Of a stretch of 64,000 bases of DNA, positions 34,950 through 64,000 are shown one piece after another. This DNA is from Ascidiella aspersa (taxonomy: Eukaryota), in NCBI GenBank assembly GCA_963924565.1, contig OZ004609.1, positions 10,912,001 through 10,976,000 on the forward strand, read 5' to 3'. The translations under genes were made by a program, and so were the position numbers. The notes under the pieces were generated by a model that made no database searches, was not told where the DNA came from, and worked only from the letters and a program-made list of their open reading frames with translations. The stretch's first letter is position 1, and every line of letters begins with the position of its first letter.

Positions 34950-36050
34950 GTAATGTCTTTGCATACTTACAACGGTATATAACGAAGCGGGCACAGTAAG
35001 CAAATCAACAAATCATTGTCAACACCCGTTCCAAACAGCAGAGTTACAGGGTCGTTTTGCAAGGAAATTAAAAGTTTTGAGGAAATCCAAGATGTCATTT
35101 CTTCCCAATAGCTTTCAATATGAAGACAATTATAAAATATATGCAAAATAGTCTCAGGGGCATTTTGACAGAAAACACATTGGTCGGAGTCAGTTTTCCC
35201 AAAGGAGTGTAATGCTTCGTTTGTTACTATCGCACGTAGGTTAAGTTTGATTTGAAACGAGCGTAGCTTGGTTTCAATTGTTGAACTGTAGAAATTACAA
35301 TACAGTTTTTGCCAAGGAGTTGTATTTGGAGAAATACCTAAGTACCGCTCCCAGTTTTTTTGTTGCTTTTCGGGGGAAACCGATAAATACTGCTTAATTT
35401 GATTGTTAAGAGCCTTTGGAGTGTCTATACATTTGTTAACTAACACCCTGATTTTTCAAAATGTCGTCAGTATGGTCCAACTCCGGTAGTAAGGCAGCAA
35501 TCATTTTAATAAAGGATTTAGTCTTCGTTATTCGGTTTAAAGTCGTATTTTATTGCCAATTGGTCATACTTAAGATATTCTCCCTCAGAATCGAGTAAGT
35601 CTGAGTGTTCGAGTATTCCCGCATCGATGAGAGGCTTCAAGTAAAATGTTGGGTTTTTAAATTTGACGCTCCTTGAAACCCAGTGACCTGCTGTGCGTTT
35701 TACCTAGATGGACAATTTGGATTATGGCTCTGAGGTCTGATATTATTTTTCGTATAGTTTGCAGGTGGACAAGTTTTTCGCTTTGTTTTAAGTTTATTCC
35801 CAGGTTGCCTCTAACCAGCACTCTAGCTGCATTAAGGATAACTCATTTTTTTTCTAAAAGTTTCCAAGGGGCTGTGTAATTAACATCTAAAAATTTTGAT
35901 TTAAGGTTTAAAGCTAAAATATAGGAATCGACTGACATATTTGCATTTCCTAGTTCAATGTTTGAAGTCAGTTTGTTTCTTTTTACTCTTTCTCATCTGG
36001 AGCCCCAGATAAATTGAAATAATTTGGTTTTTAATTGACTATCTGTTTTG
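34950..36050 (-). mobile_element. L1/Tx1-clade LINE ORF2 3' fragment
   Basis: zf-RVT-like KLRSFQIKL..CVFCQNAPETILHIFYNC..W; upstream FKFIW-like piece near 36010; broken frames. Confidence 0.8.
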
Positions 36051-38463: not shown

Positions 38464-38982
38464 TTAAAAGTTTTGCATGCCCATCGTTTTGCCATTGCAA
38501 GGTGTATAAACTGACGAAATGGGCATTTTTAAAACATTACACAAAGCCAAAATGGTCCAGGCAGAAGAAAATCCGCCTGGTGTCGCACAATCAATGCATG
38601 ACTGATCGTAGTCCGGAGAGATAAGCTCGATGTTGCTACTATTCGGGTGTTCAAGGTATTTTTTTTTGTTCATAACCATTTCTATGCAACATGCCATTTT
38701 TAGTGAAATCGCTAATCTTTCGCTACAGCAAAGACATAATGGCACAGCGTTAAAAAGACAATTTCTATTTGGTGTTGCTCTTATGGGAAGCATATTGGCA
38801 GCTATTTTGCATGTTTTAATAATATTTTCGGCATCGGAATCCAACAGTAGGGTCGTAACATTAAAATCTACCTTTGTGAAGTTCGGTGAAAACTTTTTAC
38901 TGATTTCTGCTTCACGAACCATAATTTGTTGAACGTGCTGAATTCCTTTTGACGCAGCCTGAAAAACAATCAACGGAATCAA
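38464..38982 (-). pseudogene. Vertnin-like OTU-fold domain upstream of the MULE transposase
   Basis: PIRATPNRNCLFNAV..L.I.L...CCIEM..N...Y and SSAWTILALCNVLKMPISSVY resemble vertnin/OTU motifs (canonical GDGNCLF here PNRNCLF). Confidence 0.65.
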
Positions 38983-39624
38983 TTTATTGCAAAAATATCA
39001 GATAATTATATACTTCATCGAATAGAGACGATAGGAGAAACAAACATAATTAAGTCACTTCTGAAGAGTCCTGTTTGTGCCATTAAGACCACCACGAACA
39101 TATTAATTATTAGATATATCACAGTATGCGTAATAATTGCAATAATTGCAATACCTTCTAACGCTAAGATTATGATTAACTTACCTTAGACAAAAGTGTA
39201 GCAGATTGCCTTATCATGAAAGCAGATGTGCTTTTTTGAGAGCATTTGCCACACATAAAGGCTAATTCAGTTTTTCCAAGTTTGGAAAGATCCTTTTCGC
39301 TTAACTTCTCACAGGCCGCGTGATACTAGAAATTGCAATTATCACAGTATACACAGTTATTACTGCAATTCCGGTTACAGTTCCCACTCGGATATGCACC
39401 ATTTTTTTTTCATTTTACAACTCCTCAGAAAAAAGCCTCCACTCTTCTAAAGAAAAAAATCATATTTCATTAAAAGACAACGTGTTGGACGAGCAGCGAA
39501 AGAAAATCTTTCTAACAACTTAACGTAAGGAACTAGATCACGACTAACACGTTTTATTTAAATGTGCCGCTAAATTTTTATTAAACTTCTTGTCTTTGCT
39601 TTGAATCCAGAAGTGTGTTTAAAG

Positions 39625-48646: not shown

Positions 48647-51600
48647 TCAATCGGTATCCGAACTTTCCGAATGTTTTAAGACCTCGCTTTTGCGTACAAG
48701 TTTTGCGACCACTGGCTTTGATTTGGTGGTAGCCTTCCTTTTCTTTTGAGGTTTAACATCTGCTTTAACCAAGGGGGCGATTGCGCGTTGAACTCGCTTG
48801 CTCTTCTTAGTTTGACGCATATTAGAAGGTCGACGTGGCAGAAAAGACGAGATTAACGGCTGCTGCGAAATCTTTCTTTCGGCAAATCTCTTGAGAATTG
48901 GAAGCAGGTCGCTGTCCACCTTTTTTCTGCAAAAAAACAAAAAACAACACACTTCAACATAGTTGTTTACGAAATGTACACGATTTTCGAATGATTATAA
49001 AAATCACAGGCACAATTCTTACAAAGAATAACGTCCACCTAATCTCGCGATGCTCTCACGTTAAGCTTGCTTGCCGAACCAACGCCACAACCAAATCTCT
49101 CGTTTTCCATTCCCACTTTCATAAAGCATACGGAGACCACCCCATACAAGTCCTAAATGGCCCCGTCTAAAATTGAGTGTTTATGCCACTCGCGAACACT
49201 ATGTGTAGCACTTATTTGGAACACATTTGAATTATTATTTATTAGGAAATTTAATATTGCGAAAATAAACCAAAATCATCTGGGGGCTATTTTTACTTGA
49301 CTCTCACGAGCTGTAGAGATGTAACATTTGCAGAACATTAGGAGGTGATTAAAATCTTGTTTTACTTGAACGTCCTCTGATAAGTTTGACCCAGGCCATC
49401 ACCCAAAATTGCTAATTAAGCTAAAGTTTAGCTCGACGCAGCTACAACACGAAAATGTTTTTTATGTTTATAGGATAAGCTGATGTGTTCATATTTTTTT
49501 GTTGTTCTTTGTCAGTGCTCCACCTGTTTTGACTCGCAAGGTTTAAACATTTCAGCAGAACAACCTCCAAAAATGTACCTAAAATATACACATGGACATA
49601 GTCGCATATCTAAGGCTGCTAATAGCAAAATGCCTTTCCAATAAACGCACTGGGGTACAAACACAAAAAGTCAAAAATATATAAATGTTTGCAGGTCTCG
49701 GTTAAGGGATTTTTGACCGAACGACATTTCGAAAATTATTCGTAAAGATTTATAAAAAAAACATTTCTTAAGGACAAAAATGCCCCTATTTTTACAATGG
49801 TACTTATATAAGGTTCGCACAAAGCTATATCCGCACGTCACCGAAATCGAATGTAGGCCTAACACACGGTAATAAAAATCTAACTTTCGGATGAGTTAAT
49901 CTACTGTTTACGTCAAATTTCTTGCTTTGGTGTATTTTATGTAAATTCTACACAGTATCATACAAAACCTCTTTAAATAGCGCAAGTAAAAAAAACTGCG
50001 CTATGTTGTGGAGCAGCAATGTATACATAAAAAACATCTAGGCTATACCTAGTCCAGTGAAGTTTTTGCTCAGCGAAGTTTCTTAGACCATCTAGATCAG
50101 GATAGCCCCAACTGAACTGATCCAAAGACTGGTTAACTTTGGGTTCCAGATATGCTTGAACAACAAGATCGGAGGGAAAACTTTGTGGTAAGTTGATTCG
50201 ACGCAGTTGGCTTTTTATCTTGGTTTCACTGGAAGGAGGCTTAACCTGCAGATTTCAATTAGACCACTTTCAAACTAACTAATTCTATCAGGATCACCGA
50301 TTTAGAAAACATTAAATAACAAACATTTCTACCATTTAAAGTCAAAATTTTTTATAGGGCCAGTGATTAAATTTTTAAATATTGCTTAGCACCCTAAAAA
50401 CGTATAAAAATCAAATCCCCAAAAAGCTTTACTTCTAGTTACTTTTTTGTTTTATGTTAACATTTAAAGATCTTAAAAATTTAACAACTATTTTAAAAAT
50501 ATGCTCATGTTTCGCTAACTAAATTTCGCACAGAAGCACAACATAAAATATATTTTCAATGCTTGGGTTTTAACCTGTTTATGAGCTTCCGTCCACCATA
50601 TTTTAAATGCTTTTAAACTTTCTATTCCATCGCCCGGGAACTCTTTCATTACTTCCAGGCCTCGGACAGGTCCAACTCCTTCTACACCTGTAGCAGAGAA
50701 GTTAAGGGGTTCATTTTATAGTTTAAGTTAGGGATATCAGATGCCATCCTATACCAAATGATGTCATTACTCATTACTATGCTCAAACAAGCAAAATTGA
50801 TAAAACAGAAACGATCAAATGTATTTTTTTCCAGGGTATTAGGTCAAAACGTGCTTACTTGTTAAGAAGTTTAGTTACCTACAATTGTTAACCTTGCGTT
50901 TTTTTAAATTTACCATTCCAAGGTAGAATCACTGCATTTGATCGCAAATCATGGCCGAGATTTTCATATAGATTTTGGCACCGTGATCAGCTCCGATTCG
51001 AAATTATATTACTATACATTCCTAGTTTAAGTACCTTTTTTATGCTGGTATAGTGGCAGATGCTAAAAGTAAGTGCAACATATTTGCAAAATAGCACCAA
51101 AGTGCCAGAGGGGCTGTTTTTCATAATCGTAAGAGAAAATAATACCCATAACTTTACTCCGGGCAATTTTAGTTTACTTTGTTTAAATGGATTGTATTGC
51201 CACAGGATTGTCAACTATTTTTACTCACCAGTGGTGTAGTCACTTCCACTTAGAAGGGCTATATTTATAAAGTGCTGCTGCTGTAAGCCAAGCTCGGTTT
51301 TAATATCTATTAGCTTGTAGCACTTTGGTTCCCTTTTCCGATCAAAGACGTCCTTGTAAGTCACAGTGCCACCGAATGGCCAAATGTCAGAATCTTCAGT
51401 TATAGTGCCGCAAGTTAAACCTTTCTTGTCGAGAAAGGCACACTGCGCTTCAGCTTCCTGTGAAAATTCGAGGATAAAAAATTAGACCTAATATTTAGGG
51501 CAGAGTCATGTAGTTTCTTTTTTAGTAAATATTAACATTGTTTAACTTTATTTAATCAGAATCATCTTTTGTTTGATAAATATGATGTTTTTTTCAATGA

Positions 51601-54600
51601 TTTTGATTTGTTTAGCTCAACGCCCAACGATACAAGACCTGTTTTACACAATAATTAAAAATATGAATATACTGTTACTGCCAGGCATTGTATCAATTAT
51701 AAAGGGGTTCTTCGGACAAATATTCAGCGCCGGCGTTTTGATTTTCTATGCGAGTAATCTTCTTCAAGGCAATAAACTTCAAGGGTATAATATACAGTGA
51801 GTCAAAAGACAAAAAACAAGACGAAAAAGGGAAACAAGACGCAAATAACGGGAGAATTAGAAATGTATTTTGGTGATCAAACTGATAGAGTGCTAGATTT
51901 CAAGCACCGTATACTAATTGTTCTCCACTTAGTGTAACTAAAGGTTGAGTTACAACTTCACAGGAAAGCATTACAAAAATATAGAGTTTTACCTGTGGAC
52001 TAGTAATGTAGGGTATACCAAACAACTGTAAAAGCTCCTGGCATTCAGTGGTTGCAGTATCGGAGATGTCTCTCGATGCCCTGGCAGCTGACTGCATTTT
52101 CTCCAATAAAATGACATCCTCTCTGTCAAGGTCATCACCAATTCTAGACAAGTCATCTTGTGTTACGCCTTCCCATGGATTTACAGGCTTCTCTGTGTGT
52201 GTAGCTTCTTGCCTAAAAACATTGCTAAAAATGTTAGGAAAAACAGGTTGCTGCTGTTACACAACGTCAACTATATTTCTTGAAAAAACAGCAAATCAAG
52301 TTATGATAGAACAGGGAAACTTTCAATTTTTTAAAATTATTAGACAATGAAGTTTAGTTATCTTCAGTTGTTAACCATTAATTTAAAAAAATACATTTTA
52401 AGGTAGAATCGCTGCATTGCATTGATTTTAATACGCTATGCTAAAAGGAGGGGTTGTGATGACTTAGGTCAGTGGTCGGCAAACTGTGGGCCGCAAAGCC
52501 ATTTTTAGTGGGCCGCGGGCTACTTTTGAATAGCTTAGTGTTATCATGTAGTTGTGGGCCGCGTGATAGCCATACATTCATTGAACTTTATTTAAAAGTT
52601 TGTGTGGCTAAGAATTTTTGTATTTTCTCAGCGTGGTTCAGACCCAAGTGCCAAATGTGGTCCCGATAGTCTGTATAACTATATTTTTTACCAATTTTAC
52701 CTATTTGTTAGTGCAAAACTTTTCGCACTTTGCGCTTTTAAATGTTTTACATTATGTCATAGTGCTCAGTGTTTTGGGCATTAAGGCGCCGTGTAATATT
52801 TCACCTTATGAACAAATATCCTGAACTCGCCACTGTTTTCATAGCGGTTTTACATGGTGGGTCTTCAATAGCTTTGAAAAAAAAAAATGTTTGCCGACCA
52901 CTGACTTGGTTAAAAATAAGTGTTTTTATTCAAGATTAGTTTATCATTTTAATAGTTTATTGTTTTATTTTGATATTAGTAATTTGACTTGGATTGGGAC
53001 ATGTTTGTTTACAACGGTGCTAAAAAGTTTAGCACAAAAATATTCCTCAGTAATTGTAATTTAACTTGGAAAAACTGAAATGCTATATTAAATTAAGTTT
53101 AAGTAGCGATACTACCAGTTGACATCCCGATTCGATGTTTTCAGACATTCCTAGTATTATTTATAATAAATATAACTGAGAAAAGTAGTGTAAGTAAATG
53201 TAAGTAAAAAAGGAACATTTAAGTATGAATAAATGCACATTGCATAACTCTTGGTCTCGGCATTATGATATGATAAACGACAAGATGATTAACATTACTT
53301 GTTGCTAGACATGTCATCAATTATGTCCGGTCCTCTAATATTTGAGTTTGATGGCACCTCCTCGTTTATCTCCAATGGTTGAGAAACATCTTCAAAGTCA
53401 TCAATGTTGTCTGAATCTGAGGAGCTACTGGCAACAGAAAGACTAACATCCTTAGGTTTGCTTTCTATACCTATTGTCCTTGTGTTAGACATAGGCATGT
53501 TTTCCATACTGTGAGGTTTGCTTTGCTCTAGTGTTGCTGTCTGTTTGGGTTGTGATTTAGTTTTAGGGAAGTTGACAGGTGTAGATTCACTAATGCTTTC
53601 GAAACTAGTATTCAAAATTTCAGTTTTTTGACTCTCTTTTTCAACTTGAAAACTCTGTGGATTTGCAAAATGTGTAGGAACTTGATTATCAAGATGCACT
53701 GTTCTTTCTGGCAGAACATCTTTAGAAATTTTGGTATCTTGAAACTGAAAGGAATTTGTTGGGGTTTCACTCAACAGTCCCTTTTTACTGGTTTCATTTA
53801 TTTCTGGAACATTGTCATCTGATTCGGAATTGCTGCTGATAATAAGTTCTTTTGAAGTGGGAGACTCAGTGTTGGTACTTGTGTTTAAAGGATCATAGTT
53901 TGACTGAGAGGCAACATTATTAACCTGTTCCACAGAACTTGGCTGCTGTGACAACTGCAATAATAATAACACATTAAGGTTTTATGCACACCTAAATAAA
54001 TTGAAACCTTGTGATACGCTCATAAAAATTGCATGTCTGTTTTATTTATCTTTTTATCCAATTGACATATATAAACATAATTGTTTTTGACATGGGTGTT
54101 TTAAGTTAAATTTTATGAATTTCGTAATTGTTGGATATTGGCTTTCCAAATCACTGACCTCTTTATTTGGATTTGATCTCAATCCTCTGATCAAGATATA
54201 ATGGGCAGTGTCTTCAGAACTTATTTTATTTGCTGAAATGTTCTGAGCTTGGTAGCCTTCGTCAATTGCAAACTGTGCCATGGATGCTGTGTTTCTTTCT
54301 TCCATGCATTTCTCCACAGATTTAATTTTACTTGATAATGTCTTCTTAGCGAGTAGGCCTAAAAATGGAAAGAGCTAAGAAATAAGTAACACTTAATTGC
54401 ACTAAGAATGATAAACAGTTATTTAGAAGAGGGTGTAAACCAATATTGTTGGACATATGGAAATATAGACCTGAGAGTTGAAAGCTGGAAAAGGATTCTG
54501 ATGCTTCGGGCATAGATTCCACCATGGTCCTTCTTCTCTTTTTGATTTCTTTAAGGTCACTTAGCATCTCATGTTGAATATCTGGTGGAAGAGACTTAAA

Positions 54601-57333
54601 ATCGTCGGATTCAATGTCAAGAGACATTAGATCTTGATAGCTGCTCTACAAAGAACAATCATTTTAAACCTAACTAAACTTAAAATAATGTTTTAAATTA
54701 AATAGTACAGTGGTATCATTAAAATATGTCTGTATAATGTATCCATATACAAAGAGCTACACACATTTTTCCTCTACAAAAAGTAGAATTTATATGATGT
54801 AATTATACATAGTTTTATCATCTTTTTATTTTCAGTTTTAAATCAAATAAATTATTAAACTTTACAAATAACAAGAACAAAATAGTTAAAAAATAAAAGT
54901 TTTCAAAAGTGTTAACTGTTAACACATACCAAGTTGGAAGAACCAAATAAAGAATCCTTAATGTTCGCTTTTAGTTTCCAATCTGTTTCTATTTCATCCT
55001 CAGAACAGGCAGTTTCAAGTTTATTTTTCATTGGTGGCAGGATGAAAAGATTATCTTCTTCGCCTTGCAACTTTTCTTAAGAAATATTTTTAGGACTTAC
55101 TCAAATTAATTTTAATTAAAAACAAAAATACTTACTTGAATGCTTAACCAAAGAGGATACTTCATTTATATCTGAAGAGTTTTCAGTCTGACTTTCATGA
55201 TTGTCACCATTACTTCTGTATAGTATTAATCAAATATTAAACAATTTAACACAAAAAAATATTTATAAGACGCATTTTTTATTAAATAAATCTTTATGTT
55301 TAAAAGATAATTTTTATAAAATATAAATACTAGAAAATGTAGAAAGGCCAGCAATGAGATTAACATACTTTTTCGATATTGCGAGTTTAAGCACTTCCTT
55401 TTTTAGATAATTTTGCAACATCTTTTCTGATGCAACTTGATAATTCTGCTTTTGCTGGTTCATTTTTTGTCGTCTATCTTGAATTGTTTTAATTTTAAGC
55501 ATTGGTGCTTGTCCGTCGAATACAAAAATGGGTTTGACTCCAAAATGGAGCAACTTGCAGATTCTAGAAATCAGAAAAAAGTGTACTTCTTGTCTTGTAT
55601 CCATGGACAACACTGTGTTTTTGATGCTTGGGGTGTTCAGCCCCTTAAAACAATGACAAATCAACCTGGAAGGCCATGACCTACCCCAAACTGTATTTTT
55701 AGAGTTAATAACCACCTAAATGTTTAATCTTTTTTTCAGGGTCTTCATTGAATTAAAATTAGCACTTCTAGTTGGGCAAGTGTCTATCTATCACCATGCT
55801 GGCACACCGTCGGCGAATTTCCGGACTACCAAATTGTTTTTCAATAATTTCACCTGCCTTACTATTTCGGTGGAGAAACAAAGTTCTTAAACAGCAAAAC
55901 AGCATGTTAATTAAAAGGATAGATGCACAAATGGAATGTCATTATGTGCTTAACACTTACTCATGTTATCATAGGAAATCCTTACAACCACAAGTTATCT
56001 AAATGAACAATAATTTAAACTAATGATCAATCCTTGCAACTGAATCATAGGTTTAAAGTCATTATAAATGTACTGGCCAAGTGCAAAATACCAACCCTGT
56101 TATTATACCATGTTTTGACCAATTAAAGCGATTGTTTTTAGCAACAAAAGTCAACAGTCATGATTGTATATAATATTAGGCACATATATATTATGTGTGG
56201 TTATACTTTTTATTAGGGTTGGCAAGCCTGTCAATTGACCGGTCAAATACGGTCAATTGACCGGACAATTGACCGCAGTTTATTTAACCGGTCAAATACT
56301 AATATTCGATTCAAATAGTGTAAATTTTTTAAGAGTTGTTTTGTGATTTGAGTTGTTAATAATCTTGATTGTAACTTTTTTAAAGAATTCAAATATAAAA
56401 TTGTAGGGTTTACCTGATGCAAACACATGTTCTGTGGTAATAACAAAGTGTTTCTAAAAGTAAAGTAGATTTATTTTGTTTAGAAATTTAGAATAAATGC
56501 ACGTATATGATGAATCGCGTTTGTCATAAAAGGAAACACTAGTTGGGGTATACCACAATATTAGGCTACTTAGAAATTTAGAAGAACCAAATCCCTTGTC
56601 TTTAGTGAATCCTGGTGATGATTTAGAAAAATCAGATAGTGACAAAAGTTGTGACGAGGAGTAATAATACTTTTTTACCTGATGCATTTACTTGTTGTTA
56701 AATTTCGTTAATAAACTTGGTGGTTCTAGTAGTAGTAAAAATTGCTACAGTAACTGCTACAGTATTGCTATAAGATGGGCATGGTTTTGCAAAAATTCTT
56801 ATTGATAGTCAAAAATAAATTGTTTTTGTTTTACAAACCATTGTATCTGAGCCAAAACGTTCATATATTTATTTAAAGTTAAAATCAAGGTTTATTTTTA
56901 ACTTAAATTGCATTATGATAGTGTTTATAGTATTTGACCAATATTTGACCTATTTGACGAGTATTTGACCGGTCAATTGACTGGATTTTATTTGACTGGT
57001 CAAATGCCCAACCCTACTTTTTATGATTAGCTCTTTAATTCAAACCTGTGAAATAAAGTTACAAGATGGGGGTTACTGCTGCTGTTGAAGTCCCTCATTC
57101 CTTTGACAGCCATGTTCAACCAGATGCTGATATCTGAATACAACAATGATTTAACCAATCAATTTCACTAAATTTTCCAAATTATTGTTAGGTTGAAGTT
57201 AGAGTACCGTAGTTACAAGGTTATACAAAATAGCAGTATTCTTACCAACTGCAACAGTTTTTCCCTCTAAGGATTCCAAGGTAACAGGGTGTCCACTTCC
57301 TTCTAGAAGTTTCCAGAGGCCAACAACCCCCAT
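48647..57333 (-). CDS. ERCC5: DNA excision repair endonuclease XPG (multi-exon)
   Basis: N-domain [38 protein letters not shown]; UBM-like [11 protein letters not shown]; I-domain [48 protein letters not shown]; PIP-like QPLISSFL; basic tail. Internal spacer exon boundaries approximate. Confidence 0.95.
52470..52903. mobile_element. hAT MITE in an ERCC5 intron
   Basis: TIRs CAGTGGTCGGCAAAC / GTTTGCCGACCACTG; TSD ACTTAGGT vs ACTTGGT(T). Confidence 0.88.
56214..57016 (+). mobile_element. Internal-deletion derivative of the 25276-28404 hAT, in ERCC5 intron 2
   Basis: Same TIRs TAGGGTTGGCA / TGCCCAACCCTA; perfect TSD CTTTTTAT; keeps the transposase tail [19 protein letters not shown]. Confidence 0.92.
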
Positions 57334-58242: not shown

Positions 58243-58815
58243 TCACACATCTGCCTTATTTCCAACAAGTGGAATATCTTTCATGTCCGATTTAAAGCAC
58301 AAGTATTCACCAATAACAACCATTAAAACCATGCAAACTAGCTGGACAAGCCACCACACAAACAACGCAGGAAAAGATCCAGAATATATCCAACAAATTA
58401 TAAAATGAACAAGGTGTAAAGTACTAGCAAAGTCTAAACATTGTTTTGCCCTCTGTACGACATACCACAGCGCAAGGGCACCACATACAGAGTTCAACAT
58501 ATGCGCAACCATAATTAAACGGTTTTCAGCGCCATAGTAATGCACAGTTCCTGTATCAAAAATATAGTTGAGAGAAGGGGGAAACTTTCCAAATGAAAGG
58601 AGTAGAGTTGATAACAAACCCAGACTTGTGTAGTACAGGAACTGCATTGTTAGCATTTGCGAAATGATCAGTGTTGGGTCCCAAACATAGCTTCTGAATC
58701 GACCTGTCAGAGTTGCACCAACTGAATTTGTGCTCAGCTTTTGATAAAGAATTCCTGGACACAAACGAGATAGTTGCCCAACGAGCAGGGACTTCAGTTG
58801 AAGGCAGTATTCCAT
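58243..58815 (-). CDS. SYS1: Golgi membrane trafficking protein SYS1, intronless; start uncertain (ATG 58815 or CTG 58710)
   Basis: GRFRSYVWDPTLIISQMLTMQFLYY...VQRAKQCLDFASTLHLVHFIICWIY..FP..WW..IGEYLC..MKDIPL..KADV. Confidence 0.93.
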   Translation of the reverse strand: MEYCLQLKSLLVGQLSRLCPGILYQKLSTNSVGATLTGRFRSYVWDPTLIISQMLTMQFLYYTSLGLLSTLLLSFGKFPPSLNYIFDTGTVHYYGAENRLIMVAHMLNSVCGALALWYVVQRAKQCLDFASTLHLVHFIICWIYSGSFPALFVWWLVQLVCMVLMVVIGEYLCFKSDMKDIPLVGNKADV

Positions 58816-59068
58816 CACAAATTGGTGATGATCAAGGTAAAATGTTTCCTCACAATATGCATACAAGTGTTTACGTTAACATTACTACAACCTTTAAACA
58901 GGTTAGGTAAACAGTGGGCTGAAAAATCAAATGAATTGTATTAGACTCATCACTAAATACACAATTATGGGGCTTTGGTCTAGAATCCTACAACAACGTT
59001 GAAACAAAAAACAAATATTGAATCAACGCACAATAATATTTAATTAACCAGAGCTTAATAATACTGTT

Positions 59069-63659: not shown

Positions 63660-63890
63660 TTAGAAATGAGAGGACGAAGATGATCGAAGACGCTGAAGCT
63701 TGCGCAGAGCTGGCGGAGGCTTATCTCCGCTCCTGTAGGAATCCAACTTGTGGAAGGTCAGCTGTCCAACGTCGGATGTAGTGACGTTAACGCTGTAGTC
63801 CTTGTTCAGCAATTGCGCTATTTCGGTCGTCATAAGGGAGTCGGCTCCCAACCGAAGAAGCGTCGCTGATCGACTAACTTTTTTCTCATC
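63660..63890 (-). CDS. Apparent terminal exon of a fatty-acid-synthase-like/PKS gene encoding an acyl-carrier (phosphopantetheine-binding) domain; rest of gene lies beyond the window
   Basis: After acceptor TTTTCCAG: DEKKVSRSATLLRLGADSLMTTEIAQLLNKDYSVNVTTSDVGQLTFHKL, which parallels the animal FASN ACP (TLADLGLDSLM.VEVRQ.LE.E..L.LS..EVRQLT..KL), then a 27-aa tail and TAA. Confidence 0.75.
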   Translation of the reverse strand, partial: DEKKVSRSATLLRLGADSLMTTEIAQLLNKDYSVNVTTSDVGQLTFHKLDSYRSGDKPPPALRKLQRLRSSSSSHF

Positions 63891-64000
63891 CTGGAAAATA
63901 ATTGAGTTTAACATTACAATCTTGTTAAAAAGAATGTGGCAAAGGTGGTTGAAAGTGACGGATAACAATGAATTTTGGAGCTCGATATTTTTCTCAACTA

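Follow-up and report, generated by a model that had tools for sequence, protein, structure and literature searches.

A predicted fatty acid synthase paralogue without a thioesterase in the ascidian Ascidiella aspersa

Near the right-hand edge of the 64,000-nucleotide stretch of Ascidiella aspersa DNA analysed here (the window; G000:C3:10912001-10976000), a minus-strand exon carries an ACP and then stops, raising the question of what kind of synthase ends in this way. The original prediction took it for the last and only visible exon of a host-encoded fatty acid synthase (FAS) paralogue lacking a thioesterase (TE), and proposed that the enzyme might belong to the animal FAS-like polyketide synthases (AFPKs). 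As detailed below, the absence of a TE and the intactness of a host gene stood up to examination, whereas membership of the AFPK family, as judged by KS phylogeny, did not. The distinction matters for how such enzymes are counted. The excerpts of Lin et al. 2024 (PMC10764717) consulted here state that every animal FAS has a TE and class enzymes by KS, an AFPK being one whose KS lies outside the animal FAS clade and scores between FAS and PKS on HMMs. They further report FAS alone in 232 tunicate transcriptomes and a TE absent from mollusc AFPK mo-clades 1-3.

The exon (63660-63890, minus) is the last of 35 in what we term gene A, and comprises the second part of the ACP, a tail of 22 aa and the stop. 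Its frame, from 63890 to 63660, reads DEKKVSRSATLLRLGADSLMTTEIAQ...LTFHKLDSYRS, then GDKPPPALRKLQRLRSSSSSHF, and closes with TAA at 63660-63662. The intact GADSL site that had been predicted is borne out, both by this frame, in which the phosphopantetheine Ser codon TCC falls at 63837-63839 (Ser2090 of the gene A model), and by a Pfam PP-binding match of 26.5 bits (cut-off 20.8, E 8e-6). The tail (63663-63728) is, as predicted, short, basic and Ser-rich; a low-confidence, single-sequence structure model renders it weakly helical at 60-71, with a mean pLDDT of 62. The top three matches of the exon in the PDB were mammalian FASN chains, with EcPKS1 next, and a protein atlas lookup returned generic KR-ACP clusters only. 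Intron 34, 581 nt in total, has its 3' end at 63891-64000 and extends beyond the window edge; its T-rich acceptor (63910-63891, minus) ends ..TTTTCCAG at 63891. The remaining 34 exons do lie beyond the window's right edge.

Several observations bear on whether the stop is the true end of the gene. The exon measures 231 nt in phase 0, and its 5' boundary is identical to that of the 375-nt ACP-linker-TE exon of gene C, the canonical FASN of this genome. The ACP exon of C runs into linker and TE, and those of genes A and B (231 nt each) and D (177 nt) are shorter, so that a splice directly following the ACP is not expected, and gene A stops at the position of the linker to the TE. Genes A and C together supply 71 donors, and on a matrix derived from these, whose own scores have a median of 7.6 bits, a 5th percentile of 4.9 and a minimum of 3.0, the two GTs of the tail reach -4.4 and -6.9 bits, in agreement with the earlier remark that no strong donor follows the ACP; the best late-exon GT, at 4.9 bits, is located within the last ACP helix. 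The TAA also falls, with no differing letters, within a 513-nt DNA contig of run X1, which may be the assembly's own sample. Candidate polyadenylation signals lie beyond it on the same strand (ATTAAA at 63403-63398 and AATAAA at 63347-63342), and sparse RNA reads cover this flank in the expected direction.

Transcript support for the stop at 63660 is weak, and the expression of gene A appears low in the single raw-read run used (X4, about 6% of reads). RNA depth was 0.3-1.8 in the bins of the KR-ACP exons and the 3' flank, with the direction expected of a minus-strand transcript; no RNA fell in the four bins within intron 34 or in the bin where the ACP exon begins. In the bins of the ER exon, reads ran in both directions at 88% likeness, where A is indistinguishable from B. 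Most reads were placed partially and were repeat-like, and no splice joint of gene A gathered three or more of them. Since reads are sparse and joints absent, the RNA leaves the 3' end neither established nor contradicted. A gene end with no confirming spliced read, together with decayed FAS fragments between genes C and D, could point to a dying truncated copy or an assembly artefact, the true gene extending into a TE. We give this reading very little credence, as the gene model is intact, its twin B has the same end, two Phallusia records share the tail, DNA contigs match across the stop, and no TE occurs nearby or elsewhere outside gene C.

Assembled from the sequence to the right of position 64,000 by spliced alignment of the Phallusia FAS P0123, gene A spans G000:C3:10990535-10975660 (minus) in 35 exons encoding 2148 aa, and the KS, AT, DH, ER and KR exons that had been called for are all found upstream of the ACP. 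Its layout is KS-AT-DH-psiMT/psiKR-ER-KR-ACP plus the 22-aa tail. The model has no stops, no frameshifts and GT-AG at 34/34 introns, one donor having been shifted by 12 nt to agree with gene B; the psiMT, assigned by alignment to P0123 only, is shorter than its canonical counterpart. Seven of the eight exons submitted to Pfam drew a family match, and on single exons of gene A the KS, KS-C, AT, DH and KR were confirmed, with the ER under the cut-off. Residues whose catalytic roles we assume to be those of mammalian FASN are present throughout: C163/H295/H333 in the KS, S587/H689 in the AT, H885/D1032 in the DH, GSGGVGQA/K1724/D1750 in the ER, K1930/S1956/Y1969 in the KR, which also keeps its LRD motif, and S2090 in the ACP. 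The KS tunnel of gene A matches that of rodent FASN. All five tunnel positions that, according to the part of PMC13303079 consulted, were targeted in mouse FAS (G113, S117, M132, A160 and T196) are identical in gene A.

The absence of a TE extends well past the window. Seven TE queries found no TE-like exon in 214 kb of C3 that includes the whole window (best E 0.052), which bears out the prediction that none lies between the stop and SYS1. Searched genome-wide, the TE exon of gene C matched a single place, gene C itself, and FASN-type TE sequence was found in the genome at that gene only. Pfam Thioesterase had three matches in the genome, of which one is gene C. The second lies on contig C20 among long, dense, bacterial-type ORFs at 48% GC, and for that reason was dismissed as a release partner; the region (G000:C20:13001-23000), with its intron-less ORFs resembling what we take to be a bacterial menaquinone operon, is by all signs bacterial DNA in the assembly. 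The third (C3:18503087) is a weak match, at 17 bits, to an unrelated alpha/beta hydrolase. A TE-like tail that appeared after gene D in the alignment was discarded as noise. No free type II TE was found by Pfam Thioesterase, in an exon-by-exon search that could miss one.

Gene A has three type I relatives in this genome. A KS search gave 18 matches at five loci, four of which are genes A-D; the fifth, G000:C3:23956585-23957409 (C3:23.96 Mb), is possibly the mitochondrial KAS, though this is a guess. Gene B (G000:C3:11055264-11074061, plus) lies head-to-head with gene A, is 88.5% identical to it and has the same type of end, with the same tail. The separate canonical FASN with a TE that was to be sought elsewhere is gene C on C1 (C1:7515228-7483422), 63.5% identical to Phallusia FAS and 48% identical to gene A. 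Gene D (G000:C1:7523263-7548804), head-to-head with C and 87% identical to it, ends five residues past the ACP with no TE, and is a young copy of C and apparently a second, independent TE loss. Intron phases are identical among A, B, C and D at 34/34 shared introns. In each of B and C, a mini-exon introduced by the aligner was taken out of the model as spurious. Both FAS pairs, A/B and C/D, are thus arranged head-to-head. Between C and D, at G000:C1:7518280-7521738, scrambled FAS pieces (KR, psiKR and a frameshifted ACP) lie on both strands, and are in all probability remains of the duplication. Where D differs from C, the changes are concentrated around the KS tunnel (STGSQ, M132I), in the DH and in the psiMT.

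Constraint on the pair was gauged by pairwise dN/dS, which averages over both lineages. Between A and B it is 0.24 overall and 0.15-0.25 in catalytic domains, rising to 0.57 in the ACP and tail (100 codons); the corresponding figure for C and D is 0.22. A disabled gene, the counter-case raised with the original prediction, is at odds with a model free of stops and frameshifts. The dS between A and B ranges from 0.10 (KR) to 0.65 (psiMT/psiKR), a spread that suggests patchy gene conversion. Judged by its sequence, gene A is an intact FAS duplicate that lost its TE and that groups with ascidian FAS.

The same type of gene is found in a second ascidian. Two proteins of Phallusia mammillata, CAB3243759.1 (P0052) and CAB3243741.1 (P0241), have KR and PP-binding matches and no Thioesterase match in Pfam, where P0123 does have one. 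Both are named 'fatty acid synthase', N-terminally partial and uncharacterised. Their C-termini carry LRLGADSLMTTEI and a RKFQRL(R/C)SS tail as in gene A, P0052 being 52% identical to gene A and both tails being longer; the RKxQRLxSS core is common to A, B and these two proteins. With the ER exon as query against proteins of 176-2000 aa, P0052 was the one ascidian-named match among the best 120 of 310; with P0052 against proteins of 1503-4290 aa, the top 120 of 5980 included no ascidian other than Phallusia FAS; and the ACP with its tail, against proteins of 30-470 aa, gave none among 22 candidates. A search of representative proteins, with a profile of 858 positions rather than the tail alone, added P0241 and the FAS of Ciona savignyi. 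In these searches, orthologues of gene A were found in one other species only. A putative TE-less FASN paralogue is, then, conserved between two ascidians, and each species seems to have come to its two copies independently.

The four proteins are also set apart by their KR. The loop that precedes the catalytic Tyr could be located in 301 of 391 sequences; it reads NGTK in A, B, P0052 and P0241 only (4/301), and RGN in 189 of 214 TE-bearing sequences. Three of the four tails contain RxRxxS/T, which we take to be a kinase-type motif. This motif, the conserved tail core and the low apparent expression in one RNA run could be read as signs of a regulatory or otherwise non-biosynthetic subunit, which would work as a partner of canonical FASN, or by way of its basic RxRxxS tail, and perform little synthesis of its own. 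We regard that role as very improbable, as purifying selection has kept all six catalytic domains, and heterodimers of A and C are doubtful given that the two are only 48% identical.

Descent was assessed with trees of two regions, neither of which contained a named mollusc AFPK, EcPKS1 and EcPKS2 being compared by score only. In the ER-KR tree (28 rows, LG+C20 PMSF), A, B, P0052 and P0241 form one group (100/99), C, D and Phallusia FAS another (98/95), and both unite with Ciona savignyi FAS, on a long branch, at 99/97. In the KS tree (23 rows, LG+G4), support is 100/100 for a group that joins A and B to C, D and the FAS of Phallusia and Ciona savignyi, and the AU test rejects (p 3e-8) a 13-row FAS clade from which A and B are excluded. 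An 87-row FastTree, composed with most vertebrate FASN rows left out, was concordant. Scores run the same way: exons of gene A favour FASN over EcPKS1 at the KS (85 vs 47 bits), ER (142 vs 96) and KR (92 vs 64), they also score higher on FASN than on EcPKS2, and P0052 reaches 699 bits against FASN and 480 against EcPKS1. With the KS exon as query, the highest summed score went to a PKS matched in two stretches, and the modular PKS chain CurL (80 bits) stood among FASN chains. On our own 15-sequence FAS HMM, which is not one of those of Lin et al., A scores 635, B 626, C 678 and Phallusia FAS 664, and multi-module PKS outgroup rows 285-356. Eight further proteins of about 2200-2480 aa (P0314, P0322, P0296, P0338, P0316, P0349, P0375 and P0306), at least one of them bacterial (Gemmatimonadales), lie on branches nearer to animal FAS than those of modular PKSs are.

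Because their clade is nested within tunicate FAS, A and B are, on present phylogenetic evidence, a tunicate duplicate of FASN, AFPK in layout and not AFPK by descent. It is on these grounds, and on the intact ER motifs, that the AFPK part of the original prediction falls, and that its other part, a host-encoded FAS paralogue with no TE, is upheld by the 35-exon model and the TE searches. Relative to canonical animal FASN (the human, pig and mouse structures 8VF7, 2VZ8 and 5MY0, the Phallusia mammillata protein CAB3243712.1 and gene C), gene A has the same KS-to-ACP order, the same catalytic and KS tunnel residues, 34 intron phases in common with C and a place inside tunicate FAS; it differs in ending 22 aa past the ACP with a basic tail and no TE, in a KR loop of NGTK rather than RGNA/P and in an ACP of GADSL rather than GLDSL. 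With P0052 and P0241 it shares one clade (100/99), the ACP motif, the KR loop, the RKxQRLxSS tail and the absence of a TE. Like EcPKS1, EcPKS2 and mollusc AFPK mo-clades 1-3, as described in excerpts of PMC10764717, PMC10515154 and PMC11831141, it is ACP-terminal, TE-less and present beside a canonical FAS, but AFPKs branch outside the FAS clade and gene A inside tunicate FAS.

The layout recurs beyond these groups. Among ER-KR-complete proteins, 100 of 310 have no TE match, many of them partial or bacterial, and they include FAS-like proteins of ticks (Amblyomma XP_077491843.1 and Dermacentor P0015), which end about 115-165 aa past the KR core. The tick proteins, on a separate branch, would represent an independent TE loss if their gene models are taken as given. 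Novelty is limited by the TE-less copies already known in molluscs, and what appears new here is a TE-less FASN paralogue in tunicates. A literature search covering few subscription papers found no description of a TE-less tunicate FAS, and the portion of PMC9235097 consulted holds nothing on TE loss. Such a paralogue would count as FAS in a KS screen, and its existence implies that FASN can give rise to an ACP-terminal layout by shedding its TE in a chordate lineage, as has apparently happened twice in this genome.

With no TE, release of the product would fall to a partner enzyme, to self-cyclisation or to back-transfer to CoA. We favour the first, at a probability of roughly 55%: gene A would run full reducing cycles as FASN does, and the long acyl chain on its ACP would be released by a separate enzyme. 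A FASN-like KS tunnel and intact ER motifs make long-chain, fully reducing synthesis the likeliest activity. The AT would load the chain, the KS, to judge from its five identical tunnel positions, would elongate it to long chains, and the KR, DH and ER would reduce it in each round. The chain would then remain as acyl-ACP until accepted in trans, candidate acceptors being an acyltransferase, a reductase, a PLP-dependent condensing enzyme or a free thioesterase, and the product would go into a lipid of its own, whereas gene C supplies the pool of free palmitate. Free C16/C18 fatty acid, the product of canonical animal FASN, would not be expected of gene A in the absence of a TE in cis. We predict that the KR loop of the clade, the GADSL ACP and the basic tail are adapted to the product or to the partner. 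The altered loop may, however, mean skipped reductions instead of full cycles, and excerpts of PMC10515154 caution that the products of such enzymes are not yet predictable from sequence.

Skipped reductions are central to the second route, in which gene A is a convergent FAS-like PKS: the changed KR would skip late reductions and the chain release itself as an alkyl-pyrone or similar product, as in EcPKS1/2. The ACP-terminal layout resembles that of EcPKS2, for which the available part of PMC11831141 links the pyrone to the missing TE and the polyene to an inactive ER; the substrate-side loop of the KR is uniquely changed in 4/4 TE-less ascidian proteins; and neither Pfam Thioesterase nor the scan of neighbouring genes yielded a release partner. 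Yet enzymes of the mo-clade 1 or EcPKS type are described, in the same partial sources, as having a dead ER, a methylmalonyl extender and a partly reduced polyketide product, and EcPKS2 itself combines an ER0 with a methylmalonyl-CoA substrate, whereas gene A keeps the ER motifs (the NADPH motif, Lys1724 and Asp1750), all KR catalytic residues with the LRD motif, and the FASN-leaning scores given above. We judge this route unlikely.

The third route would make gene A a self-sufficient acyl-CoA synthase whose AT returns the finished chain to CoA and which requires neither TE nor partner. The catalytic residues of the AT are intact, and mammalian MAT does back-transfer short and medium chains. 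It favours the short ones, however, and the KS tunnel of gene A is of the long-chain type; nor did we identify any AT change pointing that way, and we consider this route quite improbable.

Taken more broadly, ascidians may twice have re-invented an AFPK-like synthase from FASN, once in the A/B clade and once in gene D, yielding chordate, host-encoded enzymes that make specialised long-chain metabolites (alkyl-pyrones, or acyl chains passed to a PLP enzyme and on to ascidian amino alcohols) and that KS-only surveys file as FAS. This is a tentative proposal with the odds against it, but gene A would in any event be a concrete host enzyme candidate for ascidian specialised lipids.

The neighbourhood offers no evident pathway. 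Across 118 frames in the 34 kb downstream and the 64 kb between A and B, no release partner was evident. Downstream lie SYS1, confirmed where predicted in an open frame at 58246-58875 (minus), and, from the frame scan, an XPG-family nuclease (50990-55715, minus), an esterase (PF00756; 46471-47318, plus), an OTU-like frame (38467-38997, minus) and a zf-RVT retroelement piece (34970-35455, minus). Between A and B the scan placed a phospholipase A2 (L005:4084-4413), an intron-less glutathione S-transferase (L005:6455-7135), an EMP70/TM9SF gene (L006:5153-8742) and a PRKG1-interacting domain (L007:7002-7382). KR matches on the small contigs C18, C48 and C67 belong, like the C20 region, with the bacterial DNA in the assembly, and many single-exon short-chain dehydrogenase/KR-like genes are clustered at G000:C7:6.38-6.75 Mb and C3:28.72-28.77 Mb.
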